A DNA stretch of 64,000 nt, from positions 128,001-192,000 of IMG/VR virus record IMGVR_UViG_3300046779_001841. The stretch is one strand, 5' to 3'. The position numbers were made by a program, and so were the translations under genes. Shown here piece by piece: positions 3,726-56,490 of this stretch. Position 1 is the first letter of the stretch, and every line of letters starts with the position of its first letter. This DNA is from a virus (taxonomy: Duplodnaviria > Caudoviricetes). The notes under the pieces are model-generated. The model was not told where the DNA came from and ran no database searches. It saw only the letters and a list, made by a program, of their open reading frames with translations.

Positions 3726-3757
3726 TATAACACTTGTGACTTAGCTATCTTTGCAAC
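3726..3757 (-). promoter_or_regulatory. Conserved promoter-like element, copy 1 (no hairpin)
   Basis: Minus strand GTTGCAAAGATAGCTAAGTCACAAGTGTTATA. Confidence 0.8.
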
Positions 3758-4516
3758 CTATGCAAAAAATTTTTTAATAAAATAATGTAGTGGTTCTCTA
3801 CCATATTGATAATGCAATCCATATTGATAATATGTAAATGGTGTTAGCTTGTTTAAATCTTTAAGAACAGAACCATAGCTATAAATCATAAGATCATGTA
3901 AATCATCCATTGTAGGCTTTGCATCTAATCTAACTAAATCTGCTTCTACTTGAATTGCAATTTGTAGTTGCTTAAAAATCCATTGTTGTGCATCATAGGT
4001 GAGTTTCACATCTTCAAGTTTCTTTAAAAGAATATCACCTAAAGATAGATAATAAAAAGTGAAAAAATAAGGATCTTCGCTTTCAAGATATTTAGAAATA
4101 CAATAATCCAATGTATCAAATTGTGTCTTGTCTTTAAGTCTATCATGTAGAGTAGTTGGACATAAAACACAATTAGTTCCATTGTCTTTAAAAGAACCTA
4201 CACCACTTTCTAAAAGTGGGATAGAACCAATCTCAACATCTGTAGGATATAGAATATTATGATCTAATCCAGATGCTCGTAAATCAGTCATCCAAGTTGC
4301 ATCTGCATTATATAACATAAAAGCATAAAGAGATTTATATTCGCAATCTTTGAGTTCAAAACTTGTATGGTGTTGAATAACTTCAAGCCATGTTTCCGAA
4401 GTGCGAAAGAAATCTGGATTTGCAGTTTGGATAATGTATTTAATCCATTCAATATCATTTTCTCTAAATTTTTCAAGAAGGATTTGTTGTGCTTTTTCAT
4501 ATAAGTAATTTGACAT
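3758..4516 (-). CDS. Hypothetical protein
   Basis: 252-aa ORF; SD GAAAGGTG preceded by a CA-rich leader. Confidence 0.7.
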   Translation of the reverse strand: MSNYLYEKAQQILLEKFRENDIEWIKYIIQTANPDFFRTSETWLEVIQHHTSFELKDCEYKSLYAFMLYNADATWMTDLRASGLDHNILYPTDVEIGSIPLLESGVGSFKDNGTNCVLCPTTLHDRLKDKTQFDTLDYCISKYLESEDPYFFTFYYLSLGDILLKKLEDVKLTYDAQQWIFKQLQIAIQVEADLVRLDAKPTMDDLHDLMIYSYGSVLKDLNKLTPFTYYQYGLHYQYGREPLHYFIKKFFA

Positions 4517-4641
4517 AAGACACCTTTCATGTGTGTGTGTTGTATTTGCTTATATGAAAAGAAATACGATTTACATTTTTCAATAATGTTTTTATTTTTT
4601 TCTTTGTTGTAGAAAATTCAAATGAAAAGGATTAAGAAATC

Positions 4642-5109
4642 ATGAATCACTACCAAGCCATTAGAAAAGCCATGCAACAAAGAGTATCTGCAGATAGGAA
4701 TATTCCAAAATATGTTCAAGATAAGGCAGAATTTTTTGAAAAAGAAAAAGGTTATGAACCTGGTTATGCTTTTAGCACTGCATGGAGTATTTATTGCAAA
4801 TATAAAAACCCTGGTGATAAAGTCCATTGTAAAAAAGAACCAAGTGAATATTTTTCTAAAAAAGCAGGTGCAGTAAAGAATATGATCATGGATGTGATAT
4901 TCGATGCGATTGAATATGTAGAAAAGTTTAGCAAGAAATCTATTGATGAAGATGGAGAAGTCTTTGATCTTACACAAGAATATGTTATGGATGGTTTTAG
5001 TTCAATGACTGAAGCAAGACTTGAAAGATTATTGAAACAAAAAGGTGTGAGTAGCACGATCATTAATAATTATATGAATAAAATTCAACATGAATTACAA
5101 GAGATTTAG
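4642..5109 (+). CDS. Hypothetical protein (AWSIYCxxKNP..HC motif, KKAG)
   Basis: 155-aa ORF with AAAGGA SD. Confidence 0.7.
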   Translation: MNHYQAIRKAMQQRVSADRNIPKYVQDKAEFFEKEKGYEPGYAFSTAWSIYCKYKNPGDKVHCKKEPSEYFSKKAGAVKNMIMDVIFDAIEYVEKFSKKSIDEDGEVFDLTQEYVMDGFSSMTEARLERLLKQKGVSSTIINNYMNKIQHELQEI

Positions 5110-6461
5110 AAAGTAAGTTTCATTTCACCAATTTGATTGCCATTAACATTTTTAATGATAACTTGAGAACATTCTTTTAAATCTAACTCATTGATTTGAA
5201 TATTTTCAATCAATAAAGTAGCACCTGCAGTCATTTGGAATTTCATTCCATTGATACCTGCAGTCTTGAAAAATTTGGTTTCTGTTTTAATATCTGTTTG
5301 TTTCATAACAGTTTCTTCTTTCTGTGGAATAGGTTCTGGATCTAAAATAGATTGTGGTAAAGTTTCTAAACTAACTTGTTCTTGAAGAAGATGTTCTTGA
5401 AGAATATGTTCTTGAAGAATATGTTCTTCAATTACTGGCAAAGCTAATGGTTCATTTTGAATGACTTTTTTATCCAAGACTTTTTGATATTCATCTTGAT
5501 ATTTCATTTCCAACATTTCTTTGACATCACCTTTAAGAGTAGATGGAATACTACAACCAAAGACCATCTTAAAAGCTGAATCAATTTTATTGAAATTCTT
5601 AGTCCATTCTTTACTGAGATTTGCATCTGTAATCATATCCATTAACCAAAGTCTTTTTGTTTCAAGATTTTGTTCTTTGGTGTATTTGGGTGATTTACCT
5701 TGAATAACATGAAGCATATGATCAGACAACAAGATAACACCTTGTTCATACCATTCTTCAACTCTTTTAGGTAAATTTTCATCACTTGATGGATTATCAA
5801 TGATCTTTAGTTTTTCCATTTGTGCTAAAGAAAGATTGATGTTTTCTCTAATGCTTTTTCTATAAAAAGCGATAGGATTTTCATTATTAACATTTACAGG
5901 CACCAGTGCATATGGATGTTTCAAGCAAGATGTTTCAATCTCAATCCAATCTTCTTTTTCAATAATTTGTTTAATAAAGTTCTCAATGGTTAAAACAAAA
6001 AATTCTTCTTCTTGCTTAACATCTTCTGGAGATAGGACTTCTCTTAACATTTTAAACCTTTTTGATATTTCCCAGAAACTGGCATAGTGTTTTTGAATGG
6101 TTTCCATAGATGCTTTGATCTTTTGTGTGATTTCAATAAAAGGCACACCTAAATCATCTGCTTCTTTTTTTGCCCACTCTCTTATTGGATGACTAGACAT
6201 ATCTTTAAAATGAAAAACAATCTTTGTTGTTAAAGGCATGGTTGGAAATGATTTTTTTGTTGGATCTTTGTGTCCACCAAAAACAAGATTTAGACCTAAT
6301 TCTTTTTTCAAAGATGGTAATAGTGCTTCTTTAATGTTATCTAATCGACCACCTACAAAATAACATTGAAATGGAAAATTCAAATTCTCATTTGTAATAT
6401 GGAATGTGTTTGGATTGTTAAAGAAATCATTGACTTTAATGTCTGTTGGAATAGGAATCAT
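5106..6461 (-). CDS. Hypothetical protein with N-terminal DUF2325-like domain
   Basis: FVGG...L...GGH...IVFHFKDMSSH...AKKEA..LGVPFIEI resembles the DUF2325 pattern (from memory); followed by a long helical region and an EHILQ repeat. Confidence 0.55.
   Translation of the reverse strand: MIPIPTDIKVNDFFNNPNTFHITNENLNFPFQCYFVGGRLDNIKEALLPSLKKELGLNLVFGGHKDPTKKSFPTMPLTTKIVFHFKDMSSHPIREWAKKEADDLGVPFIEITQKIKASMETIQKHYASFWEISKRFKMLREVLSPEDVKQEEEFFVLTIENFIKQIIEKEDWIEIETSCLKHPYALVPVNVNNENPIAFYRKSIRENINLSLAQMEKLKIIDNPSSDENLPKRVEEWYEQGVILLSDHMLHVIQGKSPKYTKEQNLETKRLWLMDMITDANLSKEWTKNFNKIDSAFKMVFGCSIPSTLKGDVKEMLEMKYQDEYQKVLDKKVIQNEPLALPVIEEHILQEHILQEHLLQEQVSLETLPQSILDPEPIPQKEETVMKQTDIKTETKFFKTAGINGMKFQMTAGATLLIENIQINELDLKECSQVIIKNVNGNQIGEMKLTF
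5377..5429. repeat. 15-bp tandem repeat (about 3.5 copies) encoding EHILQ/EHLLQ
   Basis: tgttcttgaagaaga-tgttcttgaagaata-tgttcttgaagaata-tgttcttc. Confidence 0.9.
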
Positions 6462-6531
6462 TTTTTATCCTTTGTTTGTTAAAATATTTCTTATAGTAAA
6501 TGAATTGACTTTTACAGATTTTTTATGACTG

Positions 6532-6771
6532 TTATAAACAATCAGCTTCATCTTCATTATCATCAAGAACAGAGTAACAAGTATTAATTACATTCTGATA
6601 ATCACTACTCATGCAAATTTGTTGGAATGTTTGAATGTCTTTCCTAGACCAGCCTTTTCTTCTCAAACATTGACTTGTATAACCAATCAATGAGAAAGCA
6701 TTGCCATCAAGACCAACTAAACAACCATTACCTAAACCATTTTTTTCAATCAAATTTTTGAGTTCTTGCAT
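6532..6771 (-). CDS. Small conserved phage hypothetical protein (LVGxDGNAF family)
   Basis: Start reassigned to ATG 6771 (MQELKNL; AAAGGA SD). The LVGLDGNAF...G...SSDY pattern is familiar from phage hypotheticals. Confidence 0.7.
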   Translation of the reverse strand: MQELKNLIEKNGLGNGCLVGLDGNAFSLIGYTSQCLRRKGWSRKDIQTFQQICMSSDYQNVINTCYSVLDDNEDEADCL

Positions 6772-6799
6772 TTGTTTTTTCCTTTTTTGAAAGTGTTTG

Positions 6800-7120
6800 T
6801 TATCTGTTATAGTGTGTTTCATAGTCATCACAACCATAGTCCATTTCAAAATCTGCATAATCTTCAATCTCAGTCTTAATATATTCCACTAGACTTTCAA
6901 TAGAAGAGAACACTGCTTTTTTAGTCAAATCCACTAATTCATTATCTTCTTTTGTGATGATATAAACATCTTTATATGAAGCTAATATGTACTCATTGTC
7001 TTTGAAATCAATATCTGCAAGATATTGACCTTGCTCAAATTCAATAGAATTTGGATACATTTCACAATAAGAGATTTTAGAAGAAGTGATAGAAGATAGT
7101 GCTTGAATTAAGTTTTGCAT
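6800..7120 (-). CDS. Hypothetical acidic protein
   Basis: 106 aa, AAAGGA SD, directly downstream of element copy 2. Confidence 0.7.
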   Translation of the reverse strand: MQNLIQALSSITSSKISYCEMYPNSIEFEQGQYLADIDFKDNEYILASYKDVYIITKEDNELVDLTKKAVFSSIESLVEYIKTEIEDYADFEMDYGCDDYETHYNR

Positions 7121-7140
7121 TTTTGCATCCTTTTTGAGTT

Positions 7141-7190
7141 TGTCATTATCGACATATAGATAACACTTAAGGATAAGCTATCTTTGCAAC
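7141..7190 (-). promoter_or_regulatory. Conserved promoter/stem-loop element, copy 2
   Basis: GTTGCAAAGATAGCTTATCCTTAAGTGTTATCTATATGTCGATAATGACA. Confidence 0.8.
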
Positions 7191-7270
7191 GACTATGAAA
7201 TTTTTTTAATTTTCTTTTTATTAAATTTCTCTCTTGCATATAGATATAAAAAGATGAAAGGTGAGATACT

Positions 7271-7831
7271 ATGTTTTTTAATAATCGTATCGCCAAAGCT
7301 AATGTCAATCCTGTTCGCCAAAGAACACAATATTCTTGTGTATCTGCATCAACAGCAATGGCATTAAATTCTTTAGGTTTTGATACCACTGAAGATGAAG
7401 TTCAAAAAGTCATAGGTGCTAAACCTATGCAAGGTGCAAGGTGGGAAGAAGTTTTAGCTTGTTTGCAACATTATGGATGTAGAGGAACACTTGTTGTACC
7501 ATCAACATTAAAACAAGTTAAAGGTTGGACTGATCTTGGCAAACCTGTTTTAATCTCTTGGAATCCCGAAGGTAGAGAATGGAGCCATGCAAGTTTAATT
7601 TTTGATGTCATAGAAAAACCAGATGGTTCTATGGATGTTTATGTTGCTGATCCAAATATTCCGGATCCAGATCAAACAGTTCGTATTGTGGATTCAAGTA
7701 GTTTCTATTCTAAGTGGGCTGAAAAGTGGCCAAATTACATGGTTCGTAGACCTGCACTTATGGTAGATCGTGAAATAAACACTGAAGGTCGTCAAATAAT
7801 GGCATCTTTAAGAAAGAAAAAAGGATTTTAA
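7271..7831 (+). CDS. Peptidase C39-like cysteine peptidase
   Basis: RQRTQYSCVSASTAMAL (Q..C), GKPVLI...SHASLI (His) and VYVADP (Asp) match the C39 catalytic layout. Confidence 0.85.
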   Translation: MFFNNRIAKANVNPVRQRTQYSCVSASTAMALNSLGFDTTEDEVQKVIGAKPMQGARWEEVLACLQHYGCRGTLVVPSTLKQVKGWTDLGKPVLISWNPEGREWSHASLIFDVIEKPDGSMDVYVADPNIPDPDQTVRIVDSSSFYSKWAEKWPNYMVRRPALMVDREINTEGRQIMASLRKKKGF

Positions 7832-7832
7832 A

Positions 7833-8822
7833 ATGTTAAACAATAGAAGACGCAATAATCGTATTGCTTGTGGTTGTGGTGATGATACATCTTTATCTCA
7901 ACCTTTAATGATGAGAAGAGATTATGGTTCTCAAGATCATTTTGCTAGTGATGAAATGTTAGCTGATTTTGATAAAGAATCAAGATTTCATGAAGGACCC
8001 AAAGGTAAAAAAGAATGGAAAGAATGGTTTGAAGATCAACCTGAAGATTTTCAAGAAGAATGGAATGAGAATACAGAAAAGTATCGTGATAAATTTAAAG
8101 AAGCAAGATTTCATAGAGGACCCAAAGGCAGAAAGAATTTTGAAAAATGGATTAAGACACAACCATTTGAAGATGAATGGAATGTGAATAATTGTATGTA
8201 TAGTGGAACGATTACAGGTAAAGCACCTAAATCACAAGAATCTTGCGAACAAGAATTAGGTGTTAAACTCGCATCAAGAGTTGCCAATAGATTTATGGAA
8301 AATACCAACAATAATAGATTTCTCAATCGCACTGCTAGACATCTTATTGCATCTATTGAAACTGAAATGAATGAACTCTTATCTGAAGCAGATAAGGCTG
8401 ATGAAAAAGCTAAAGAATATAAAACTGCATGGTCTAAACAAGATCTTTCTTATTTAAAGAAATCAAATATTATTCCAGCTGATTTACATGATAAACTTGC
8501 ATCATCTTTTGATATTATTAAGAGTGCAGAAGAAATGGTAAAGAATGCAGTAAAAAAATTAAAAGCTACTGCAAAGAGTAAAAGAAAAGAAGCTAGAAAA
8601 TTAGGTAAAAAAGCTAATGCTATCATGGAACTCCAAGCAGATAGTGATGGTTCTTATATGTCTGTTTCTAATATCAATCAAATGATTACTCAATTAACTT
8701 CTCTTGCAGATGTTATTCATGCAGATACAGAATTAGAAGACTGGGTTGAAAGCAAACTTGCACACGCACATCAAAATATTCTTGATGTTGCGAACTATAT
8801 GTTCTTTTCACCTAAAGTTTAA
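7833..8822 (+). CDS. Hypothetical (putative head-associated) protein with internal repeat
   Basis: Two RFH(E/R)GPKG.K....W...QP repeats. The C-terminal QL..L....D.ELEDWVESKLAHA.....V..YM segment resembles a helical motif common in myovirus hypotheticals. Confidence 0.65.
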   Translation: MLNNRRRNNRIACGCGDDTSLSQPLMMRRDYGSQDHFASDEMLADFDKESRFHEGPKGKKEWKEWFEDQPEDFQEEWNENTEKYRDKFKEARFHRGPKGRKNFEKWIKTQPFEDEWNVNNCMYSGTITGKAPKSQESCEQELGVKLASRVANRFMENTNNNRFLNRTARHLIASIETEMNELLSEADKADEKAKEYKTAWSKQDLSYLKKSNIIPADLHDKLASSFDIIKSAEEMVKNAVKKLKATAKSKRKEARKLGKKANAIMELQADSDGSYMSVSNINQMITQLTSLADVIHADTELEDWVESKLAHAHQNILDVANYMFFSPKV

Positions 8823-22537: not shown

Positions 22538-22616
22538 AATAGTATCTCCATTTGTTTGTTAAAGTTTTAAGTTTATTAAACTCATCTCAATAAAAGATTA
22601 TAAATAAACTATAATC

Positions 22617-23105: not shown

Positions 23106-23193
23106 GGTAGTTTCTCCATTTGTAAAAAAAGTTTTAAGTTTATTAAACTCATCTTAATAAAAGAATATCAATAAACTATTGATGCGAATGTTT
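23001..23193. repeat. About 190-bp direct repeat, copy 1 (leader coding + SD + upstream motif)
   Basis: Near-identical to 24249..24439 by visual alignment. Confidence 0.9.
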
Positions 23194-23195
23194 AA

Positions 23196-26325: not shown

Positions 26326-26383
26326 AATAAAAAACCTTTCTATATAGCATTATAGAAAGGTAAAAAATAGAAAGATTAAAAGT

Positions 26384-26803
26384 TTAATACCATGCAACCA
26401 ATTTCACATCTTCTACTTGAGAATAGAATTTGAAATACTTAACAATTTCTTCTATTTCTTCTACAGTATATTCACTAACATAACCATAAAAGTCATATTT
26501 ACTTGCAGTAGTCATTAATGCAGACCAAACATTATGATCTTTGAGATCATAAGATGCAAATTTGAGATATGCTTCTTTAATCTCATTTGCAGTGTGTTCA
26601 TTGAAAAGCCAAAGATCTTCATAATCTCTTGGATTTTCAAGTTCAAGACCAAGCATAGCTTGAATGATAGGAAAATAGTATTTGCCCCTCCATGCACCTT
26701 GTTCTGGCATACCCATAGATGCACAGACAAATGCAGTTAATGGTTCACCTGTATAATTAACAGGTTCATTTTTGGAATTTTGGAAAAAGTTATCAAGACC
26801 CAT
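26384..26803 (-). CDS. Hypothetical protein
   Basis: 139 aa; AAAGGA SD with CA-rich leader. Confidence 0.7.
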   Translation of the reverse strand: MGLDNFFQNSKNEPVNYTGEPLTAFVCASMGMPEQGAWRGKYYFPIIQAMLGLELENPRDYEDLWLFNEHTANEIKEAYLKFASYDLKDHNVWSALMTTASKYDFYGYVSEYTVEEIEEIVKYFKFYSQVEDVKLVAWY

Positions 26804-26859
26804 GATGTAAATCCTTTGTGTGTGTTGTTGTGTTTATTTTTTTTAAGTGAAAGAGTTTC

Positions 26860-27051
26860 TTACTTGTCTTCAGAATAGCCATCAAACCAAGCACCAACTT
26901 TATTGGTATATCTAATCTTCTCAGCACTTTGACAAGTTTTACTACTTGTTTCTGGATGATTACAATGTTCTTGAGCCTGTTCTAAAGTCAAGCCTCTTTT
27001 GATCACTCTTTTAGAGTTTGTTTTGTAAAAAAATCTTACTATGGAATACAT
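26860..27051 (-). CDS. Small hypothetical protein (GLTLEQAQEHC motif)
   Basis: Start reassigned to ATG 27051 (AAAGGA SD); the track's 5' extension simply runs through element copy 3. Confidence 0.7.
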   Translation of the reverse strand: MYSIVRFFYKTNSKRVIKRGLTLEQAQEHCNHPETSSKTCQSAEKIRYTNKVGAWFDGYSEDK

Positions 27052-27073: not shown

Positions 27074-27122
27074 GTCGCTATCGACATAACTATAACACTT
27101 GTCACTTAGCAACCTTTGCAAC
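27074..27122 (-). promoter_or_regulatory. Conserved promoter/stem-loop element, copy 3
   Basis: GTTGCAAAGGTTGCTAAGTGACAAGTGTTATAGTTATGTCGATAGCGAC. Confidence 0.85.
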
Positions 27123-27127
27123 GAATG

Positions 27128-27490
27128 TTAAATTTTTTTTTCATACCATTCTTTAATCTGATCATTGATTTGATCAAAAGTGTCTGACACAACAAGAAGG
27201 TCGGTATTGTTTAGTGTTTCTAAGAATTTGGAAATGATAAAGACTTGGTTTTTAACATTAAGAAATTCTTTAAGTTCTGGTTTTTTCTTTGTGGTTTCAA
27301 ATGGTTCAAAAAGCACGGGTATAGATGAAAGATTTTCATCTTCAAAAAGTTGATCCATGTAATAGCAAATATAATCTATCATGCAGAGTTTAGTCGCATA
27401 TTGTAGAGAATGGCAATCATCAAATGGCATTACAATGTTGATCATTTCTCTTAGATTAAAAAGAATAAGGTATAATTTTTCATTCTTCAT
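27128..27490 (-). CDS. Hypothetical protein
   Basis: 120-aa ORF co-oriented in the island. Confidence 0.65.
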   Translation of the reverse strand: MKNEKLYLILFNLREMINIVMPFDDCHSLQYATKLCMIDYICYYMDQLFEDENLSSIPVLFEPFETTKKKPELKEFLNVKNQVFIISKFLETLNNTDLLVVSDTFDQINDQIKEWYEKKI

Positions 27491-27504: not shown

Positions 27505-28074
27505 TTATTTATAAGTGTTCAAAGAACAAATATCATTCATAACTTCTCTTAAATCTTTTAAAGTCATGTGTTCATCTTCTGATGTATGGAAATATGGATT
27601 CATCTGTTTATCAAATGAATCTACAATTTCCCAAAGAGTTTCAGTCTGTTCTTCCATAGATGGGAATTCCAGATAGCTAAAACTTTCATATAAACATCTA
27701 ACTGCTTTTAAAATTTCTTTCTTTAGAGAAGGCAGTTTATAAAATTCTACTTGTGATGGATCAGTAATCAATGCAAGTAGTCTTTGAATTTCTTTGACTT
27801 CTTCTTTGGATGTTAAGAAAACTTTTTGTTTTTCTATGCTATCTTTTGAAATCTCTTTCAAAGAATCTATCAGATCTTCAATTTCATTGGAATTATCTGC
27901 AATCAAAGATAGCTTTTGAAAAAAATCACCATTATGGTCTTTATTGAGAACTTTTTGGATAGCATTTTTTAGGTTGGTTTCTACTGTATCAAAACTTTCT
28001 ACACATGAATCATGTTCAGAAATAACTTCTTTGATAGCAAGTAGTGTTTCTAAAATAAAAGATGTTGGTTTCAT
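27505..28074 (-). CDS. Helical hypothetical protein (MKPTSF paralog 1)
   Basis: Aligns end to end with 28163..28705. Confidence 0.75.
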   Translation of the reverse strand: MKPTSFILETLLAIKEVISEHDSCVESFDTVETNLKNAIQKVLNKDHNGDFFQKLSLIADNSNEIEDLIDSLKEISKDSIEKQKVFLTSKEEVKEIQRLLALITDPSQVEFYKLPSLKKEILKAVRCLYESFSYLEFPSMEEQTETLWEIVDSFDKQMNPYFHTSEDEHMTLKDLREVMNDICSLNTYK

Positions 28075-28098: not shown

Positions 28099-28149
28099 TT
28101 GTCCTTAATGACAATTCTATAACACTTATCGTTGAGCAGTCTTTGCAAC
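28099..28149 (-). promoter_or_regulatory. Conserved promoter/stem-loop element, copy 4
   Basis: GTTGCAAAGACTGCTCAACGATAAGTGTTATAGAATTGTCATTAAGGACAA. Confidence 0.8.
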
Positions 28150-28162
28150 TCGCATGAAATTC

Positions 28163-28705
28163 TTATAAAGAAAGTTCATTCATAACTTCTCTTAGATTAT
28201 TTAAGGTTTGATGTTCATCTTCTGGATCAAAATCTTTTGATTTTTGATTTTCAAAACAATCTTTGATCTCATAGATACTTTGAGCATGGTCATTTAGATT
28301 TTCAAAATTTAGAATGTCTAAATTCTCATTTAGTGAAGATACTGCTTTAAAGATTTTTGTCTTTAATGCTTTATCAAGACTATAAAATTCTACTTCTGTT
28401 GTGCTGGATAAAAGTTTATTTATTCTGGCAATATCTTTTTTTGCACTCAAATAGATTTCTTGCTTATCCACACATTCTTGTGCAAGATCTATCAAATCTG
28501 ATATTCTTTCTTCTATACCAGAAATCTGTTTCTCTATGATAGATAGTTTCTCTAAAGATGAACCATTATGTTCTTTGGCAATTTCTTGTTGTACAAGATC
28601 TTTAAAATCTTTTTCAATTTCATCATTTGGTGAGAGATTGAAATGATGAAATACTAAGTCACTAAGACCAAGAAGAATTTCTAAAACAAAAGATGTTGGT
28701 TTCAT
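28163..28705 (-). CDS. Helical hypothetical protein (MKPTSF paralog 2)
   Basis: Shares MKPTSF.LE.LL, HNG, VEFY.L and EDEH.TL..LREVMN with paralog 1. Confidence 0.75.
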   Translation of the reverse strand: MKPTSFVLEILLGLSDLVFHHFNLSPNDEIEKDFKDLVQQEIAKEHNGSSLEKLSIIEKQISGIEERISDLIDLAQECVDKQEIYLSAKKDIARINKLLSSTTEVEFYSLDKALKTKIFKAVSSLNENLDILNFENLNDHAQSIYEIKDCFENQKSKDFDPEDEHQTLNNLREVMNELSL

Positions 28706-28736
28706 AGGTTTTTCCTTTTCTATGTATGTTGTGTTT

Positions 28737-29159
28737 TTATTTATTTAAGTAGTCATCCCAATCCATTGCAGGTAATATCTCAATTTTTTCTTTTGGTGGT
28801 TTAATCTTTAAAACTTTTTTGCTCCACTCACCTTTAAAAATATCCATTTGTTTTTCACTTAACACTCTACCACTTTTAAGTTGAGTAGTGATTGAATCAC
28901 AAAAATTTAAAAGCCATACAGACTTTGTTTTAGTTTTCAAAAGACTTATTTGATTTAAAAACTCTTGATCTACTTCTACAGGTTCTGGTGGGTTTAACAT
29001 ATTGTCCAATTTTCTGTTAAAGAGATTTATTTGTTTTTCACTTAAGGCTCTACCTGCATTTACTTGATCAAGTAGTGATTGCACAAAATTCTTTGTCCAA
29101 TCATCACTTGTTACCATCAAAAGAGCATTTGCATTATTTTTGAAATCTTGCATATTCAT
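28737..29159 (-). CDS. Hypothetical protein with two W..NF..S...Q...GR.LSEKQ repeats
   Basis: Internal duplication is visible in the translation. Confidence 0.75.
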   Translation of the reverse strand: MNMQDFKNNANALLMVTSDDWTKNFVQSLLDQVNAGRALSEKQINLFNRKLDNMLNPPEPVEVDQEFLNQISLLKTKTKSVWLLNFCDSITTQLKSGRVLSEKQMDIFKGEWSKKVLKIKPPKEKIEILPAMDWDDYLNK

Positions 29160-29184: not shown

Positions 29185-29233
29185 GTCATTATCGACATTC
29201 TTATAACACTTATGCTTAAGCTACCTTTGCAAC
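29185..29233 (-). promoter_or_regulatory. Conserved promoter/stem-loop element, copy 5
   Basis: GTTGCAAAGGTAGCTTAAGCATAAGTGTTATAAGAATGTCGATAATGAC. Confidence 0.85.
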
Positions 29234-29297
29234 CAAATGAAATTTTTTTTAAATAATTTTATTCTTTGTATCTACATAAGAAAGGCAGATAAAATAT

Positions 29298-47816: not shown

Positions 47817-47818
47817 TC

Positions 47819-48349
47819 TTATTGTTTTTTATCATTTGCATTGATAGTGAAAAACATCTTTGGATCATTTAAAACATTTTTAATTTCTTCACAGAAAGCA
47901 TGAATATCTTCTAAAGAAGAAGTATTGTCTTTGGCAATATCATTTAACAAATCTATTTTTTCTAAGATATTTGCCTTTAACATTTCATGTTCATCAAAAA
48001 GTTGAGAAATTAAAGAAAGTAGAATTTCTTTCTTTAAGATCATTTGATCTGGTAGAGCTTCCATAAACAATTCTAAAGAATTGCTATTCAGATCTAATTG
48101 TATTGAAAAGATAGCATCATATGGTATTAAAACTTCAAATGGTTTTCCATTGAATGTTAAAATAGTTTGCACACAATCATCATTGAGATATGTTGGACTT
48201 GCAAATTTATATGATAGACTTAATCCTACATCATACTTGTTTTGCAAATGACTTGGGAGTTTAACATCTTTATGGCAACCATTTAGATGGATAATGGTTT
48301 TACCTTGACTTAGATAGTCAATCAAAATTTGTTTTTTCATTTCAGACAT
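47819..48349 (-). CDS. SspB-like ClpXP adaptor domain with coiled-coil C-terminus
   Basis: IIHL...DVKLPSHL....V.L.LSYKF......DD.VQTILTFNGKPFEVLIPYDAIFSI matches the SspB V.VP..L...L.F.G.....IP..AI pattern. Confidence 0.7.
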   Translation of the reverse strand: MSEMKKQILIDYLSQGKTIIHLNGCHKDVKLPSHLQNKYDVGLSLSYKFASPTYLNDDCVQTILTFNGKPFEVLIPYDAIFSIQLDLNSNSLELFMEALPDQMILKKEILLSLISQLFDEHEMLKANILEKIDLLNDIAKDNTSSLEDIHAFCEEIKNVLNDPKMFFTINANDKKQ

Positions 48350-48398
48350 AACTTTTTCCTTTAAGTTTAATGTTGTTTGGTTTTAATGTTGTGAAGAT

Positions 48399-49181
48399 TT
48401 ATTCTGGAATGCTTGTTTTAGCTTGTTGTCTAGCTTGTCTTTCTTCTTTTCTTTGTGCTTTTACTTGTTCTGTATATGAAACACACCATTTAGACAATAA
48501 ACAAGCAGTGCAATCACTCTTATTATAATTGCCATAACAAGCAGTGTTTTCTATCAAAGAATTTCTAAAACTATCACAAGCAAGTAATTTTTCTTCTCTT
48601 GTTTCTTCAACAATTAAAGATCTTGTTTCAATCACAAGTGTTGGTTCAATTTCAATGATAGGTTGAGTTTTTACTACCATTGATGGTTCTTCAATCTCAA
48701 TGATAGGTTGTGTTTCTATTGTAGTTTCTTCAATCATTACAGGTTCAGGTTGTGTTTCTACTACCATTACAGGTGCTTCATTAACCACTTCTTCAATCTC
48801 AATGAAAGTCATAGGAATGATATGTCTTTTAGGTTGAGTTTGGATTGAAACCATAGGTTGTGTTTCTACTGCAGGTTTTTCAATCTCAATAGTAGGTTCA
48901 ACAATCATGATATTTGATTGATTTGCAATCAACCATGTAGTTCCATTTTGAGTAGTTTTACCTTCTTGTTTTAATTTCCAAAATTCATCACTAATAAACT
49001 TTTCAAGTTTAGAAACATTGCTACCAGAAACAAATCCAAATTGATCTCTTGTAAATCCTAAAGAAGAGATTAATTGTTGTTTGTAATCTGCACTCTTGAT
49101 TGGTGACAATGTTTCTAACATTGGCAACATAGCTTGTTTAATGGAGATTTTGATTTCTTTAGTAAAGTCTTGCATTTGCAT
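48399..49181 (-). CDS. Hypothetical protein with ETQP-rich linker and C-terminal Cys cluster
   Basis: Repeated (V/I)ETQP(I/V) units; C...ACYGNY..SDCTACLLSKWC. Confidence 0.7.
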   Translation of the reverse strand: MQMQDFTKEIKISIKQAMLPMLETLSPIKSADYKQQLISSLGFTRDQFGFVSGSNVSKLEKFISDEFWKLKQEGKTTQNGTTWLIANQSNIMIVEPTIEIEKPAVETQPMVSIQTQPKRHIIPMTFIEIEEVVNEAPVMVVETQPEPVMIEETTIETQPIIEIEEPSMVVKTQPIIEIEPTLVIETRSLIVEETREEKLLACDSFRNSLIENTACYGNYNKSDCTACLLSKWCVSYTEQVKAQRKEERQARQQAKTSIPE

Positions 49182-49201
49182 TTTCCTTTTTTTTAGGTCT
49201 A

Positions 49202-49250
49202 GTCGTTATCGACATTCTTATAACACTTGTCACTTAGCTATCTTTGCAAC
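49202..49250 (-). promoter_or_regulatory. Conserved promoter/stem-loop element, copy 6
   Basis: GTTGCAAAGATAGCTAAGTGACAAGTGTTATAAGAATGTCGATAACGAC. Confidence 0.85.
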
Positions 49251-49268
49251 GGATATGAAAAAAAATTT

Positions 49269-51098
49269 TTACATCAACATATTTAGAAAATCTTGTTCTG
49301 TAATCACTTTAATTCCAAGTGCATTTGCCTTATCTAGTTTAGATCCTGCTTTTTCACCAGCCACTAGATAATTTAAATTCTTGCTTACTGATGATGCTAC
49401 ATTCCCACCAAGTTCTAAAACCTTAGCTTCTGCATCATTTCTTTTCAATGTTGTCAATGTACCAGTGAATAAGAAAGACATACCTTTAAAGATACCAGTC
49501 TTTTCACTACCATTGTCTATCACAATGTATTGCAAGAGATCATTGATAAGACTTTCATTTGCTTTTAATCCATTCACAATATCTTGTGCAGTAACATTAC
49601 CAAAGCCATCAATCTTTTCAAGATCATCAGTCTTTAATGTTTTGATTACATCTAAAGTCTTGAATTGACTTGCTAAAACTTCACTGGCTTTTCTACCTAA
49701 GCTATCAATACCTAATCCAGATAAGAATTTATCTAAAGATAGTCTTGTGCTTTTAGTAATGCTAGATAACCAATTATCTGCTCTAGTTTCACCTACACTT
49801 TCAATCTTGAGTAAATCTTCTCTTTTAAGTCTGTATAGATCAGCAAAGCTATTCACTAAACCACTTTCAATTAATTTCTCAATCCATACATTACCTATAC
49901 CTTCAATTCCTACTCTTTCCATGTAATGAGAAACCTTTGTGGATAATGAACAATTTGCAGTGCAATAAAGAAAATCATCTCTTTGTTCTGTTACAGATGA
50001 ACAAAATGGACAATTTGATGGAATTTGAATTTCTTGATCACCTGCATTGATTACTTTTTCAAGATGTGGAATAACACCACCTCTTCTAATAGCTAAAACA
50101 TCTGCATTGAGTGTTAAACCTTTTGTCTTAATCATACCTGCATGATGAAGAGAAATCCTACCTACCATAGCACCACTCAATTTAACTGGTTGAACAATAG
50201 CTACTGGTGTTAAGATACCTGTTCTGCTTACTTGCCATTCAACATTTAAAAGTTTAGTAGTGCCAAATTCACCTTGAAATTTATATGCCATAGCACCTTT
50301 AGGATGGTGACTTGTATATCCAGCATTTTCATATTCTTGATTTGAATTTGCTCTAAAGACAACACCATCTAATTCATAATCTAAACTATCTTTGATATTG
50401 AGAATATGATCATATCCAGCTTGATGATTATCATCTTTATTGAGAATGAAAAATGGAGTAGTTTCAAATCCTAAAGTCTTTAATGTTTCTAGTCTATCAG
50501 AAAAAAGATTGAGATCACTACCTATCAAATCATAAGCAAGAAATTTGATACCTTGAACATTACCATCTTTTCTTTTTACCATACCAGCTACTGCATTTCT
50601 TGGATTGGCAAATACATCTTTTTGTGTTTCAAAAATAGACACTGGCATATACAATTCACCTCTTATTTCAAGAGATGTTGTGATAGCAATTTGTTTAGGT
50701 ACAATGTTGATGATATTTTGTGTTATATCTTCACCTTTAGAACCATCACCTCTTGTAGCACCTTGAACAAGAAGTCCATTCTCATATTTAATAGAACAAG
50801 CCATACCATCAATTTTAGGAGTATAGACAAGACTTGAGAAAGATTTAGACCACTTGATCAAATCTTCTTCATTATAGCATTTATCTAAACTTAACATAGG
50901 TTTAGAATGAGAAACTTCATTACCAAGTTCTGCAAAATTTTCACCTAATGATGAAAGCACTGGTGAATTTGGAGCAAGTGATCTTAATTGCTCTACAAGA
51001 GCATCAAATTCAATATCACTTATTTCTGGAGCATTTAAGTCCCAATAAAGTGCATTATGTTTGGCAACTAAATTTTCTAAATCTTGAACTGAATACAT
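49269..51098 (-). CDS. ligA: NAD-dependent DNA ligase
   Basis: PEISDIEFD, HSKPMLSLDK, PKIDG (adenylation Lys), TRGDG..GEDIT, ELDGVV, W.VSRTG.LTP, zinc finger CPFC...CTANC, HhH repeats, C-terminal BRCT (FLFTGTL...GG.V.SSVSK...YLVAGEKAGSKL). Confidence 0.97.
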   Translation of the reverse strand: MYSVQDLENLVAKHNALYWDLNAPEISDIEFDALVEQLRSLAPNSPVLSSLGENFAELGNEVSHSKPMLSLDKCYNEEDLIKWSKSFSSLVYTPKIDGMACSIKYENGLLVQGATRGDGSKGEDITQNIINIVPKQIAITTSLEIRGELYMPVSIFETQKDVFANPRNAVAGMVKRKDGNVQGIKFLAYDLIGSDLNLFSDRLETLKTLGFETTPFFILNKDDNHQAGYDHILNIKDSLDYELDGVVFRANSNQEYENAGYTSHHPKGAMAYKFQGEFGTTKLLNVEWQVSRTGILTPVAIVQPVKLSGAMVGRISLHHAGMIKTKGLTLNADVLAIRRGGVIPHLEKVINAGDQEIQIPSNCPFCSSVTEQRDDFLYCTANCSLSTKVSHYMERVGIEGIGNVWIEKLIESGLVNSFADLYRLKREDLLKIESVGETRADNWLSSITKSTRLSLDKFLSGLGIDSLGRKASEVLASQFKTLDVIKTLKTDDLEKIDGFGNVTAQDIVNGLKANESLINDLLQYIVIDNGSEKTGIFKGMSFLFTGTLTTLKRNDAEAKVLELGGNVASSVSKNLNYLVAGEKAGSKLDKANALGIKVITEQDFLNMLM

Positions 51099-51122
51099 AG
51101 GTTTTTCCTTTTTGTTTTGTTT

Positions 51123-51171
51123 ATCGTTATCGACATATCTATAACACTTGACGAATTGCTATCTTTGCAAC
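51123..51171 (-). promoter_or_regulatory. Conserved promoter/stem-loop element, copy 7
   Basis: GTTGCAAAGATAGCAATTCGTCAAGTGTTATAGATATGTCGATAACGAT. Confidence 0.85.
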
Positions 51172-51186
51172 AGACTGCAAATTTTT

Positions 51187-51555
51187 TTAGAATGATCTAT
51201 TATTATTATCAAAATCATTCTTGTTTCTTTTTAACCATAATGCAAATGTTGAGAGTTGATCATCTTTATTAAAATTAGGATTTCTCAAATCTCTTGCTAG
51301 AACATTATGAACTACATTTAGATTTGAAGATATTCTATAATCTCTTGCATATTTAAGAACTAAATATTCCCATTTTTTGCTATTACCATCAGTGAATAAC
51401 AATGCACATATATGTTTACAAGGAATACCTTCTTTCATTGCATTTTGCCATCCACTACAATCACAAGAAAAATTTTCTTGACCATTTTCAAAGACTGTTT
51501 TTGTGCAAGTTTGATTATCAACATGAGCAGTAAATTTTTGCTTTGTCATTTTCAT
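51187..51555 (-). CDS. SWIM zinc-finger protein
   Basis: FSCDCSGW......PCKHICALL (CxC...CxH). Confidence 0.8.
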   Translation of the reverse strand: MKMTKQKFTAHVDNQTCTKTVFENGQENFSCDCSGWQNAMKEGIPCKHICALLFTDGNSKKWEYLVLKYARDYRISSNLNVVHNVLARDLRNPNFNKDDQLSTFALWLKRNKNDFDNNNRSF

Positions 51556-51592
51556 TTTCCTTTGTTTTTTGGTTTATCATCAATCACATATA

Positions 51593-51624
51593 TATAACAC
51601 TTGTGACTTAGCTACCTTTGCAAC
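51593..51624 (-). promoter_or_regulatory. Conserved promoter-like element, copy 8 (no hairpin)
   Basis: GTTGCAAAGGTAGCTAAGTCACAAGTGTTATA; differs from copy 1 at one base. Confidence 0.8.
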
Positions 51625-51726
51625 ATAGGATAAAAAATGTTAAAATTTATTTTACTTGGATTTGTTCTCTACTTCATTAATGCAGAAGCCTTATACATAT
51701 ATATAGTGTGTATGCTAGGTGGATAT

Positions 51727-52881
51727 TTAAAACATTTGAGCAATAGCTTTAGCTAATGGTGGTGGAACTGCATTTCCTATTTGTCTATACATAGAATTTA
51801 AAGATCCTGTAAAAATAAAGTCGATTGGGAAACCTTGTAGTATTGCACACTCTCTTACAGATAATCGTCTTTGTTTATTTGGATGGATTTCTGGAATTGA
51901 TGCAGTAATTGTATCACTTGGTGTTTCCCAATTACACACTCTTAACATTTGATCAAATGTTATTTTTCTTTCTTCAAATGTTAGCATTACTTTATCATAA
52001 GTATCATCTAAATTTAATATTTGTTTTAAAGCTAACCAATCTTCTCTATTTGGCAAACTACCATAATCATCTTTTCTAAACCAATGTTCTGCAGTATGTG
52101 TATATCCTAAAATCTCATTTATTTTTTTCATACTCTTAGTTTTATATTTATCTAAATATACTGCGATCTCTTTTTGACAAACATCATATTTTCTTTTCAT
52201 AAAAGTATCTTCAACATTCGTACTCGCAACATGATTATATATCATTTGACCATTATGTTCAAATGGCAAATCTCTTGTTCTTACACCAGCTAAAAATCCT
52301 ATCGCTTCTTTTGTTGTGATATGAAGTTGTTGTGAAAATAAAGAATATTCAGATTGATGTGTTGGTATAGGAAAAGAAACAGGTTTATTTATATTATTGC
52401 CAATAATGATAACTCTTTCTCTATTTTGTGGTACACCATAATCACTGGCTTTTACTAATTTGTAATTTACATTATATCCAATATCTTTAAAATCTTTAAG
52501 AATGTTTTCAAAGATTTTACCACCACTTAAAGACAAAATACCTTTAACATTTTCTGCCACAAAATATTTAGGTTGCTTATCTTTTATTATTCTAAGCATT
52601 TCTTTATACAAGAAATTTCTTTTATCCATTTCATTTCTATTTGCATTAGATATACTGAAACCTTGACAAGGAAAACCACCCACTACTATATCTATATCAT
52701 TTGGCAAATCTTCCGATTTAACTTGTTGTATATCTTGAAGAAGAGTATGTTTGCCAATATTCAATTCATAAGTGTTTAGTGCATCTTTGTAGAAATCCAA
52801 AGCTAAAACAATTTCATGTCCTGCTTGAATGAAACCTAAATCAAAACCACCACATCCAGAAAATAAACTCAAAACTTTCAT
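51727..52881 (-). CDS. dcm: DNA (cytosine-5)-methyltransferase, orphan
   Basis: Motif I LFSGCGG, IV GGFPCQGFS, VI ENV, VIII QNRERV, IX RRLSVRECAILQGFP, X YRQIGNAVPP. Confidence 0.95.
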   Translation of the reverse strand: MKVLSLFSGCGGFDLGFIQAGHEIVLALDFYKDALNTYELNIGKHTLLQDIQQVKSEDLPNDIDIVVGGFPCQGFSISNANRNEMDKRNFLYKEMLRIIKDKQPKYFVAENVKGILSLSGGKIFENILKDFKDIGYNVNYKLVKASDYGVPQNRERVIIIGNNINKPVSFPIPTHQSEYSLFSQQLHITTKEAIGFLAGVRTRDLPFEHNGQMIYNHVASTNVEDTFMKRKYDVCQKEIAVYLDKYKTKSMKKINEILGYTHTAEHWFRKDDYGSLPNREDWLALKQILNLDDTYDKVMLTFEERKITFDQMLRVCNWETPSDTITASIPEIHPNKQRRLSVRECAILQGFPIDFIFTGSLNSMYRQIGNAVPPPLAKAIAQMF

Positions 52882-53720: not shown

Positions 53721-56201
53721 TTATCCTCCAAAGATTGCAGAGAAAAGATCAATAATGATTTGTGGTGGTCCAGGTATCACTACACATTGACCCATACCTA
53801 AAGATGGTGCTTCTGGCTTTTTAGTTGAAGATAGAAAATCAGACAATACACCATCTGTACCTTGTGAAGTAACAAATAACATTCCAACAGTCGCACCTAA
53901 ATCCAAAGTGAAATTTAAGATCGCATCAATAAATGCTTTTAGTTTCGCAATTATTCTCTGGATCTCTTGGATTCTCTTTTGAAGAACTTCTATGAAATCT
54001 TTAATTGCTCTTATTAAACCTTCTAAACCTAATGTTAAGTTTTCTACAAAAGCAACAATTTCATTTAGGTATGCAGTGAAATCTGGAAAACCATCTATAA
54101 AGAATTTTACATTATACCAAGCACCTGTTTCATTTAAGACTTTCTGTGGTAATGCACTTAACATTCTTCTTGCATTTGTTATCATGTCTTGATTTACAAG
54201 ATCATACATAATAGACAATTTAGAAATCGTCTTGACCTGTTCTTTATCTGATACTCCAAGTTTCTTTTCTGTATATGCAGTTGGAAATACAGGTTCTATT
54301 CTTCTTTCAAGACCTGATGTTAAATATAAAAGTGTATTTCCTGCAGTTCTTGATCGTGATACTTTATTTGCACTTATTGCAAGATCAAAAGATGAATCGC
54401 CAAAACTACCAAAATTATTTACATTCGCATGAACACCATACATACTATCTTCATTTAAGAAATCATAAAAACTTTTCTTTTCAATATTACCATCCACTAC
54501 CACTTCTATTCTTTTTTGACTAAGATATTCAATCGTGTCTTTTAAAGCATCTAATTGTGACAAGGTAGGAAAAGGTATACGATTTATAATATTCTGAATG
54601 ACTGCTAAAACATCACTTCTAAAATCACTCGCATCTTGATCAAATTTAACTAAACTTGTTGCGGATGCTGAACGATTTGCATAAGCCATAAGATTAAATC
54701 TTACTTGTGATGGCAAATTGAAAAAGTAAAACTTATCAGAACCATATAGAAAGGGTTTGGCAAATTCTGCACTTGAAACACCAGGTTGTTGACCATTTAG
54801 ATAATTCTTTTCGTTTAGATAATCGCCTAATATAAAAATTGCTAATGCTTCTTTTAAAGCATTGATATAATCCACTCGATCATATTTAGGCATCTTTATA
54901 CCAGATCGTGATGGTGTTATAGATACTGTATCTGTTGTTAAACCAAAAGACACTACACTATTCCATGTATATAAACTTTTATTCTCTACTACATCACCAT
55001 CAGATAAACCTAAATCTTTACTTAAAGATAAGACTTCTATATATAAATCTTCTGCATCACTTTCTGTTACTTTATCTAAGATAGTGATACCATTTGTGGT
55101 ATCACCATCCACTTCGTAAGGCTGACTAGAATATGTGATCTTTTTTGGTAGTTGATCTAATGGTATTGTCAAGCTATATGAATTACCTGTTAAGAAAGCA
55201 CCTAGTGCAAATGGATTATAATAAAATGTTTTATTTGTTTTTTCTACAAGTGCTTGTGTTAAGACTACTTTGTCATCTTTAAAAAAGTATTGATAGTTTG
55301 ATGGATTGCCTTCAAGAATGATTGCATCCATATTATCTGCATAAGGCAATACTCTATTACTTTGAATGAGATTTGGACTGCCATACAATGTAAAAGATTT
55401 ATTATTTACAGATACTGATTTATATAAAGTACTCGCTATTTCTCTGGCAAGTTCAATATTGGTAGATGTTTGTGCAGATTTAGTTCTTCTTAATAAACCT
55501 ACTTGCACTGGCATTGTTGTTATGTTTATTAAGAAAGCATCGGGTGGTACAACAAAAGAAGGAAAGAAACTATCTTGACTATTTGCAGGTGGTGATAATT
55601 CCCAAGTGATTTTTAAACCTTCAGGTGCTTTCATTTTTGAATTATTAAAAGGTATTCCAAACTTAGTAACAAGAGTAGCATTTACACCAGAAGGCACTGG
55701 CAATCCAGTGTCTTGTAAAATACCAGTGAATAACTTTCTTAATTGTATAAATGCACGGATTACTGCGAAGATACCTTCTGTGTTTGCACCTGCAAATTGA
55801 AATATAGCAAGAACTGCACTATCTTTACTAATAACAGGTCGTGTTGTATCTGCAGGGTTTGTAAATTTATTTACCATTCTTTGTTCAAATGCAGAATACC
55901 CACCTGCAAATACTTTATAACCATCATCAAAAACTTTAGGTATCAAATCAAGATCTGTAGTTAGATAGATACCTAAATTTTGAAAATCGGAAATAAGATT
56001 TTTAATGAGTGCAATAAGTTCTTTTAAAAGTAAAAGCAATGGATTACTAAAATCAATAAGAAATGCTTTAACAAATTCCAGAACATTGTTTAAAAAAGTT
56101 AAGAAGATATTAAGAGTAGCAAAGATGTTATCTACTATAGGTCTTACATTTTCAAAAATGTCTGGAATTTTAGGTGTTTTGACAACTGACCATTCTGCCA
56201 T
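53721..56201 (-). CDS. Large hypothetical protein with helical termini (probably virion-associated)
   Basis: 826 aa; amphipathic heptad N- and C-terminal segments with a beta-rich middle. Confidence 0.6.
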   Translation of the reverse strand: MAEWSVVKTPKIPDIFENVRPIVDNIFATLNIFLTFLNNVLEFVKAFLIDFSNPLLLLLKELIALIKNLISDFQNLGIYLTTDLDLIPKVFDDGYKVFAGGYSAFEQRMVNKFTNPADTTRPVISKDSAVLAIFQFAGANTEGIFAVIRAFIQLRKLFTGILQDTGLPVPSGVNATLVTKFGIPFNNSKMKAPEGLKITWELSPPANSQDSFFPSFVVPPDAFLINITTMPVQVGLLRRTKSAQTSTNIELAREIASTLYKSVSVNNKSFTLYGSPNLIQSNRVLPYADNMDAIILEGNPSNYQYFFKDDKVVLTQALVEKTNKTFYYNPFALGAFLTGNSYSLTIPLDQLPKKITYSSQPYEVDGDTTNGITILDKVTESDAEDLYIEVLSLSKDLGLSDGDVVENKSLYTWNSVVSFGLTTDTVSITPSRSGIKMPKYDRVDYINALKEALAIFILGDYLNEKNYLNGQQPGVSSAEFAKPFLYGSDKFYFFNLPSQVRFNLMAYANRSASATSLVKFDQDASDFRSDVLAVIQNIINRIPFPTLSQLDALKDTIEYLSQKRIEVVVDGNIEKKSFYDFLNEDSMYGVHANVNNFGSFGDSSFDLAISANKVSRSRTAGNTLLYLTSGLERRIEPVFPTAYTEKKLGVSDKEQVKTISKLSIMYDLVNQDMITNARRMLSALPQKVLNETGAWYNVKFFIDGFPDFTAYLNEIVAFVENLTLGLEGLIRAIKDFIEVLQKRIQEIQRIIAKLKAFIDAILNFTLDLGATVGMLFVTSQGTDGVLSDFLSSTKKPEAPSLGMGQCVVIPGPPQIIIDLFSAIFGG

Positions 56202-56387
56202 TTATTTTTTCTCTCTTTGATTTCTTTTTTGTGCTTCTAATCTTTCCAATTCCATTTGTGCTTTACTCAATTCTATTAAGTCTTTATCAAGCATCGATTG
56301 AAACATTTGCTTCAAGTTTTCTAATTGGTCTGTAAAAGATTTAACTTTTTCTTGATCTGGATTGATCTTGTTTTTCCATTCTGCCAT
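56202..56387 (-). CDS. Small coiled-coil hypothetical protein
   Basis: 61 aa, TAA-ATG coupled to the next gene. Confidence 0.65.
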   Translation of the reverse strand: MAEWKNKINPDQEKVKSFTDQLENLKQMFQSMLDKDLIELSKAQMELERLEAQKRNQREKK

Positions 56388-56440
56388 ATTGCACCATACT
56401 TTTTTAAAAGAAGAAAAAATTATAAATAATATACAATCTA

Positions 56441-56490
56441 TTGCAAAGATTGCTCAATAACAAGTGTTATAAGTATGTCAATAATGACAT
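56441..56490 (+). promoter_or_regulatory. Conserved promoter/stem-loop element, copy 9 (+ strand)
   Basis: TTGCAAAGATTGCTCAATAACAAGTGTTATAAGTATGTCAATAATGACAT. Confidence 0.85.

Follow-up and report, generated by a model that had tools for sequence, protein, structure and literature searches.

A fixed-geometry, putative promoter-plus-leader element heading CG-free units in an uncultured tailed jumbo phage, and its candidate reader

The stretch of DNA analysed here, hereafter the window, comprises 64,000 nucleotides (nt) of the IMG/VR virus record IMGVR_UViG_3300046779_001841 (its bases 128001–192000) and carries nine copies of a putative promoter-plus-leader cassette with the core TTGCAA-N15-AAGTGTTAT, to which we gave the name class I. 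In our judgement, the chances are about even that class I is a phage-specific promoter-plus-leader class used by the host core RNA polymerase, probably by means of a sigma factor encoded by the phage. The source record, rated complete by IMG/VR, measures 316,221 bp at 31% G+C and is the genome of an uncultured tailed jumbo phage, labelled G000 below; G001 and G003 designate contigs of its relatives. Jumbo phages without an RNA polymerase of their own are thought to reprogramme the host enzyme by their own sigma factors.

Copies and architecture of the class I element

In the window the core was found nine times, eight times on the minus and once on the plus strand and always with the exact 15-nt gap that a preliminary description of this DNA had reported, against no occurrence in 100 dinucleotide-preserving shuffles. 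Six of the start coordinates given in that description (7141, 27074, 28099, 29185, 49202 and 51123) are 18–20 nt lower than those of the core; they correspond to the distal limit of an extended element of ~49 bp and are consistent with the cores measured here (Table 1). A position weight matrix scan of the whole genome separated the copies cleanly, the best score in the shuffled genome being far below, and gave 44 exact and 47 near-exact copies. Far from being scattered without regard to gene starts and orientation, all 47 are intergenic, never inside genes, with a start codon on the same strand 30–51 nt downstream (39–44 nt in the window), a single outlier in this distance being attributed to rough gene calling. 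The 15-nt gap was kept in all 45 copies in which it was counted. Outside this population the motif was found at chance level: an exact-motif scan of IMG/VR gave chance matches only, in the coding sequence of two unrelated phage gene families; the metagenome contigs scanned added short fragments of the same population and the same chance matches; and the full motif had three single matches in 185,579 bacterial and archaeal genomes.

When the 47 copies were aligned, a full element of ~70 nt emerged, in which conserved blocks are split by variable bases, so that conservation is position-specific rather than uniform. The promoter part consists of a UP-like A/T tract followed by G-TTGCAAAG-N3-GC-N8-AAGTGTTAT, where the N3 is semi-variable. 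The upstream tract, already noticed in the preliminary description, is an A-tract followed by a T-tract 7–20 nt 5' of TTGCAA, with up to 1.1 bits per position. An A precedes AAGTGTTAT and another follows it, then come two variable bases and TATGTC. The 3' part of the cassette mostly reads GTCR-ATAA-YGAC, followed by an A-rich stretch, AAAGGA and ATG; the A-rich AAAGGA leader described earlier is present after the motif.

The many near-identical copies, and the variants that evolve in concert within each genome (see below), are what would be expected if the element were mainly not a promoter but a recombination or mobile cassette, or a signal acting purely at the RNA level. The strict orientation and start-codon distance at 47/47 copies, the position-specific conservation and the absence of copies inside genes make this extremely improbable. 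Duplication of gene and promoter together was also considered as the source of the uniformity and rejected, because 32 of the 46 first genes behind class I are unrelated singletons, with no paralog among the rest; the other 14 fall into six small families.

The GTCR-ATAA-YGAC word forms a hairpin whose full 4-bp stem is present in 32/47 copies in G000, and the number of paired cells was above that of all 2000 column shuffles. At the variable stem pair we counted 22 A-T, 11 G-T, 9 G-C and 2 A-C, a pattern compatible with G-U pairing, which points to an RNA or single-strand structure rather than to a palindrome in duplex DNA. The stem was predicted in 35/45 copies in G000 vs 6/14 in G001 and 3/21 in G003; being mostly missing in the relatives, it appears to be a lineage-specific addition outside the core promoter. 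If transcription starts at the G of TATGTC, the stem is predicted to stand at the very 5' end of the mRNA, and stem-loops at the 5' terminus are known to protect transcripts.

Units headed by class I

The class I units consist of 1–3 genes, mostly small genes of unknown function, together with items such as a DNA ligase. In line with the preliminary description, no recognisably structural gene is headed by the element in the window, where the products of the units are small ORFans, one protein with a SWIM zinc finger and a DNA ligase of the NAD-dependent type.

These units form a discrete set that is nearly devoid of the dinucleotide CG. The first genes behind class I contain 13 CG in 22.8 kb vs 524 expected (observed/expected 0.025) and 44/47 of them have none at all, whereas the CpG observed/expected ratio of the other genes is 0.37; GpC is normal in both sets. 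The CG-free tracts extend for 0.7–1.9 kb from the leader to the end of the unit, in a genome with a median CG spacing of 76 bp, and of the 48 CG-free tracts that reach 600 bp or more, 35 have a class I element at their start. The CG remaining in the cassette are located in the hairpin stem and just before TTGCAA.

Lineage-specific variants in the relatives

Five IMG/VR contigs code for a DNA polymerase ~90% identical to that of G000. In G001 (72 kb) the element reads TTGCAATGAAAGC-N8-AAGTGTTTT, with the 15-nt gap in 14/14 copies, whereas in G003 (196 kb, 63% complete) it reads GAAC-TTGCAAT-AAA...AAGTGTTT, has no GC box and shows a 14-nt gap in 21/22 copies, only one copy having 15 nt. Each genome is thus internally uniform while the genomes differ from one another, and the only invariant words are TTGCAA and AAGTGTT; an A-to-T change in the G001 and G003 variants removes the putative TATA box. 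One copy of the G003 type was found in a more distant relative whose sigma factor is 80% identical to that of G000. No class I-like copy was detected within 20 kb in relatives with a 49–51% identical sigma, and a ligase-based search for further lineages retrieved the G003 species only. Variants that are uniform within and different between genomes, together with the chance-level occurrence of the motif elsewhere, are hard to square with a slow-evolving housekeeping sigma of the host as the sole reader, and this comparative pattern points to a phage-specified component in the reading of class I. In some G001 copies (21273, 62973 and 63620) an 8-nt insert displaces the TATGT box, and the same copies have another small hairpin, TACC-ATA-GGTA, directly after AAGTGTTTT.

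Fit to known promoter grammars

The preliminary description considered the element a poor fit to a housekeeping sigma-70 promoter, and our analysis led to the same view, as no workable −10 is available in the class I direction. TTGCAA matches TTGACA at 4/6 positions, with an invariant TTG, and is an acceptable −35; the A/T tract upstream of it also agrees with an UP element, which is expected at ~−40 to −60. At the 18-nt register, instead, TGTTAT stands in the place of the −10, and its G at −11 never varies. The TATAnn register has been lost in G001 and G003; in G000 it lies 21 nt from the −35 and its would-be −7 position is unconserved (0.3 bits), the distance and the lack of conservation at −7 being as previously described. 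The test for an extended −10 (TGn) failed as well: G000 has TGTTATAnn, but −7 is unconserved, and in relatives keeping AAGTGTT the TGn-type hexamer turns into TTTTnn or TTTAnn. A sigma-70 consensus scan called none of the class I sites in their own orientation. For a sigma-54 promoter (GG at −24 and GC at −12, 10 nt apart), TTGC resembles the −12 element, and no conserved GG was found upstream in the 47-copy alignment.

A second register, nTGACA-N17-RATAAT, was tried and rejected, passing at only 10/47 copies. Were it the real promoter, overlapping the hairpin, TTGCAAAG..GC and AAGTGTTAT would be sites of a phage activator or repressor; the 10 copies that pass satisfy sigma-70-like criteria and RATAAT-like hexamers are common at positions 40–45. 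This arrangement is highly improbable, since 37/47 copies fail, the most conserved bases would fall in the spacer and the register is not kept in G001 and G003.

Candidate readers of the element

A search of the genome for a sigma factor and for RNA polymerase subunits, as suggested by the preliminary description, detected a sigma-70-family protein and no polymerase. The sigma gene, outside the window at G000 275940–276662 (+), codes for 240 amino acids (aa) with sigma2 and sigma4 domains and an N-terminal domain of ~100 aa. A profile of this open reading frame (ORF) and its homologs gave a match (E 8e-7) to 3mzy, a solved sigma-H structure, that spans both sigma2 and sigma4, and an AlphaFold model (predicted local distance difference test, pLDDT, 71) matched almost only sigma factors; the closest proteins of solved structure belong to sigma groups 3 and 4. 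Some of the homologs carry Pfam Sigma70_r2 and are annotated as sigma factors. The gene is not CG-free. A thymidine kinase gene follows it, an order kept in relatives down to 49% identity. The mRNA of the sigma gene may be leaderless, as a Shine-Dalgarno site is missing and the ATG comes just after a conserved box of the AATAT type. As for a second sigma paralog, a weak match to a 329-aa ORF at 7833–8822 was judged not to be a sigma, and no other was found.

In the Pfam search for RNA polymerases, G000 gave no match to PF00940 or PF00562, a weak test because the PF00940 control also gave none. Six proteins of 1257–2847 aa have no family assignment, and in view of N4 and crAss-like phages an RNA polymerase of the phage, possibly delivered with the virion, might hide among these giant ORFans and read class I, virion polymerases being often invisible to sequence profiles; the hairpin, moreover, adjoins the conserved boxes. 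We consider this very unlikely. Besides the weak Pfam negative, the giant ORFans showed no multisubunit-type catalytic motif and, compared by sequence with solved structures and searched in an atlas, no polymerase-like match (also a weak negative), while the UP-like tract and the TTG-type −35 belong to the grammar of bacterial RNA polymerase and relatives lack the hairpin. According to published comparative work, sigma factors that recruit the host core enzyme are typical of jumbo phages without a polymerase (PMC7824862).

Proposed mechanism and its weighing

The enzyme acting on class I would most likely be the host bacterial-type core RNA polymerase. The A/T tract may provide a UP-like contact for the alpha subunits, TTGCAA may serve as the −35 and AAGTGTTAT, 15 nt downstream of it, as an extended non-canonical −10. 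Specificity would come from a phage-encoded factor, for which the 240-aa sigma is the best candidate, its sigma2 and sigma4 being the domains that a promoter of two parts requires. The predicted start site is the conserved G of TATGTC, 7 nt after AAGTGTTAT; in the G000 lineage the stem-loop would then stand at the 5' end of the mRNA, followed by the A-rich Shine-Dalgarno leader, and each cassette would launch one short transcription unit.

Several observations weigh against this scheme. The DNA-reading helices of the sigma (regions 2 and 4) are almost identical in G000 and G003 though their promoter variants differ. Members of the sigma family occur widely in huge phages of 31–67% GC that are devoid of the motif, and the family is far older than class I; at 48 loci of distant carriers no comparable repeated element was found, a TTGCAA enrichment at one locus being not promoter-like. 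The identical helices and the wide spread suggest that the sigma may read only the invariant TTGCAA and AAGTGTT, or that it may serve another promoter class, e.g. the −10-only TAATATAAG class. If class I were immediate-early, a sigma made by the phage could not read it unless delivered with the virion. The canonical holoenzyme, furthermore, probably works on the G000 genome and accepts TTGCAA as a −35: this hexamer is its own reverse complement and doubles as the −35 of divergent promoters, and perfect divergent TTGCAA-N16/17-TATAAT promoters are present at 5/47 sites vs ~0.24 expected. Finally, the hairpin is of low stability (−2 to −4 kcal/mol) and conserved neither in G001 nor in G003.

Those divergent promoters, together with the UP-like tract and the TTG-type −35, also speak for class I being a set of very strong immediate-early promoters with additional consensus, read by the host holoenzyme alone with its housekeeping or an alternative sigma. 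The gene content is ORFan-rich and early-like, the CG-free units hint at an expression that precedes the action of other phage functions, and a phage needs some promoters that are active before any phage protein is made; in T4, too, the early promoters have a consensus beyond the sigma-70 elements (PMC2988021). We regard recognition by the host holoenzyme alone as rather unlikely, because an A at −11 is missing from the only workable register, the TATA register lies 21 nt off and is lost in relatives, the sigma-70 scan calls no site, the motif is at chance level in the 185,579 genomes, and between phages whose DNA polymerases are 90% identical the element changes in concert at many positions and even in its spacing.

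The preliminary description had proposed an early regulon read by a phage-specific or unusual host sigma or activator. Support was obtained for one coherent regulon of strict orientation and geometry, for the poor fit to sigma-70 and for a sigma of the phage's own, whereas an early rather than a middle timing, suggested by the gene content and the CG-free property, and a tie of the sigma to class I rather than to another class did not gain the same support.

CG-free units and the C5-cytosine methyltransferase

The units in G001 are also CG-free (12/14 without CG in 400 nt), whereas those of G003 are ordinary, with a mean of 2.7 CG vs 2.9 in random windows. The orthologous ligase has 0 CG in G000, 0 in the G001 fragment and 7 in G003. 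The CG-free property thus tracks the promoter variant, being present with the 15-nt gap and GC box (G001) and absent with the 14-nt gap and no GC box (G003), in a small sample of three genomes, one of which, G003, is 63% complete.

A C5-cytosine DNA methyltransferase is encoded in the window (Table 1). Its closest similarity, to M.HaeIII and M.HhaI, is confined to the catalytic half, and its target is not readable from the sequence. The gene is missing from the syntenic slot in G003 (278-aa gene to ligase) and from the available 196 kb of that contig. It is conceivable, though doubtful, that the GC-box/15-nt-gap variant, the CG-free units and the methyltransferase form one co-evolving module. 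Class I would then be the address label of an expression programme that works while a CG-reading activity is in force; this activity could be of the host or of the phage, act on DNA or RNA and be linked to methylation, and only CG-free units would escape it. T4 Alc, which discriminates templates by cytosine modification, offers a loose analogy. If true, this would be a new kind of composition-based gating of phage gene expression. As the promoter marks exactly the CG-purged units, and the CG-free property tracks the promoter variant across relatives, class I offers a handle on an unexplained selective force.

Likeness to known systems

Phage sigma factors and phage promoter classes are of a kind already known from SPO1, phiEco32 and T4, whereas the sequence and geometry of class I, its concerted drift among close relatives and its coupling to CG-free units are new. 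In SPO1 the middle promoters are read by the phage sigma gp28. As proposed for G000, SPO1 lacks an RNA polymerase of its own, and its sigma redirects the host core to a two-part promoter; its middle promoters share with class I a fixed spacing, a lack of resemblance to the host consensus and a reuse in many places. The switch of SPO1 from the host sigma-A to phage sigmas is described in PMC13401047. The two systems differ in that the sequences are unrelated, the recognition of class I by the G000 sigma is only predicted, and the class I units are CG-free with a consensus that drifts between close relatives.

The T4 early promoters (UP/−35/TGn/−10; PMC2988021) resemble class I in their dozens of copies scattered over a large genome, the UP-like tract, the TTG-type −35, the TG, the consensus beyond the hexamers and the many small unknown genes behind them; unlike class I, with its G at −11 and no workable TATAAT, they match the sigma-70 −10 very well. 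The T4 middle promoters (MotA box and sigma-70 −10, with sigma appropriation; PMC2988021) likewise have numerous copies and a phage-specified upstream box, in place of the −35 or in addition to it, but there the MotA box lies 12 ± 1 bp from an excellent sigma-70 −10, which class I lacks. MotA and AsiA are used at the T4 middle promoters, whereas a search of G000 for MotA_activ and AsiA gave no match at E ≤ 1.

Promoters of the sigma-28/FliA type (group 3) read TAAA-N15-GCCGATAA. They share with class I a short −35 word, 15 nt and a −10 block of 8–9 nt with a G in place of the housekeeping A; the sequences differ and there is no flagellar context here. By analogy, the class I layout appears to resemble group-3 sigma promoters most, and more than housekeeping ones. 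The promoters of phiEco32 and phage 7-11 are essentially single −10-type elements, resembling the TAATATAAG class of G000 more than class I; in these phages a sigma-70-family phage protein acts with the host core enzyme (PMC8948821). The early promoters of N4 are hairpins read by the virion RNA polymerase (PMC4496689) and have in common with class I a small hairpin at a conserved position near the start. The N4 hairpin, however, is upstream of the start and is the recognition element, whereas the class I stem has 4 bp, lies at or after the predicted start and is not shared by relatives, and G000 yielded no N4-like polymerase.

Class I would be a sharply defined and easily synthesised promoter, with natural variants that differ in spacing, auxiliary box and −10 tail. 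Since a candidate cognate sigma is available, the promoter/sigma pair is open to in vitro tests that need no phage culture, and an orthogonal pair of this kind would be useful in synthetic biology.

Table 1. Coordinates of class I elements, the units behind them and other features in the window.
Feature	Position	Strand	Remarks
Class I element 1	3709..3776, core 3727-3756	-	leader without canonical hairpin
Class I element 2	7142..7209, core 7160-7189	-	hairpin GTCG-ATAA-TGAC
Class I element 3	27074..27141, core 27092-27121	-	
Class I element 4	28101..28168, core 28119-28148	-	
Class I element 5	29185..29252, core 29203-29232	-	back to back with plus-strand start of baseplate/tail operon
Class I element 6	49202..49269, core 49220-49249	-	
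Class I element 7	51123..51190, core 51141-51170	-	heads ligase gene
Class I element 8	51576..51643, core 51594-51623	-	
Class I element 9	56421..56488, core 56441-56470	+	sole plus-strand copy of the window
Unit 1	3390..3686	-	98-aa ORFan; CG-free tract 3321-4077
Unit 2	5106..7120	-	three genes, 106 aa, ~80-110 aa and 451 aa; two CG only, 5058-7149
Unit 3	26384..27051	-	63-aa and 139-aa ORFans; CG-free tract 26240-27075
Unit 4	27505..28074	-	189-aa ORFan; CG-free tract 27396-28129
Unit 5	28163..29159	-	140-aa and 180-aa ORFans; CG-free tract 28152-29192
Unit 6	47819..49181	-	260-aa and 176-aa ORFans; CG-free tract 47714-49203
Unit 7	49269..51098	-	NAD-dependent DNA ligase; 0 CG in 1830 bp, 45 expected
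Unit 8	51187..51555	-	122-aa SWIM zinc-finger protein; CG-free tract 51153-51821
Unit 9	56510..57118	+	202-aa protein, signal-peptide-like N-terminus; CG-free tract 56296-57298
Near CG-free stretches	3321-4077, 5058-7149, 26240-29192, 47714-51821, 56296-57298		
Divergent canonical promoter TTGCAA-N16-TATAAT	56419..56446	-	shares palindromic TTGCAA of element 9 as -35
C5-cytosine DNA methyltransferase	51727-52881	-	just upstream of element 8
(T)AATATAAG copies	~4549-4555 (-), 58650-58656 (+)		
ATAGTTTAT family	22575-22612, 23142-23220, 24389-24476	both	heads three paralogous 121-162-aa genes, start MFTQRQR

The phage, its host and other features

Among the proteins of G000 are a DNA polymerase of family A, a tail-sheath protein of 1741 aa and proteins of the baseplate and tail; the DNA of the phage was found in freshwater and lake metagenomes of several studies. 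A megablast comparison with deposited phages gave no match. The closest GenBank record, LR745208.1, is a metagenomic phage of 485 kb and 54% G+C with a DNA polymerase identity of 47%; the class I motif was not found in it even allowing 3 mismatches, this phage being too distant to be informative.

A Shine-Dalgarno core precedes 82% of the G000 genes vs 8% in an internal control, and none of 355 upstream regions carries the paired elements of the Bacteroidota −33/−7 promoter (TTTG, 17–21 nt, TAnnTTTG), a type whose genes mostly lack a Shine-Dalgarno site; the two results together argue against a Bacteroidota host. Hosts of that phylum have been predicted for a lineage of large aquatic phages from matching habitats (PMC12619734), the likeness to G000 being one of habitat. 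The Shine-Dalgarno use, the promoter types and the single tRNA gene of the 316-kb G000 genome (tRNA-Met, 230478–230551) sit uneasily with such predictions for comparable jumbo phages of fresh water.

Other promoter-like sequences are present in G000 besides class I. A (T)AATATAAG class, with a −10 only and no conserved −35, has ~31 gene-proximal copies, 10–67 nt before the starts of mostly larger genes, and occurs at a similar density in G003. Promoters of the TATAAT type are also present, and in a small family located before the tail-sheath block, ATAGTTTAT precedes a TATAAT-like box and a leader with conserved GAGTTTAATAAA. Outside the window, a minus-strand cluster at G000 76176–78183 encodes a clamp-loader-like protein, a NusG/KOW-like protein and a 187-aa protein with sigma region-4-like helix-turn-helix motifs, and is reminiscent of a T4-style late-transcription module.

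Within the window, a peptidase C39-like protein (7271–7831, +) is divergent from class I element 2. The 1741-aa protein (14277–19502, −) has its tail-sheath C-terminal domain only at the extreme C-terminus and is unusually long for a sheath.

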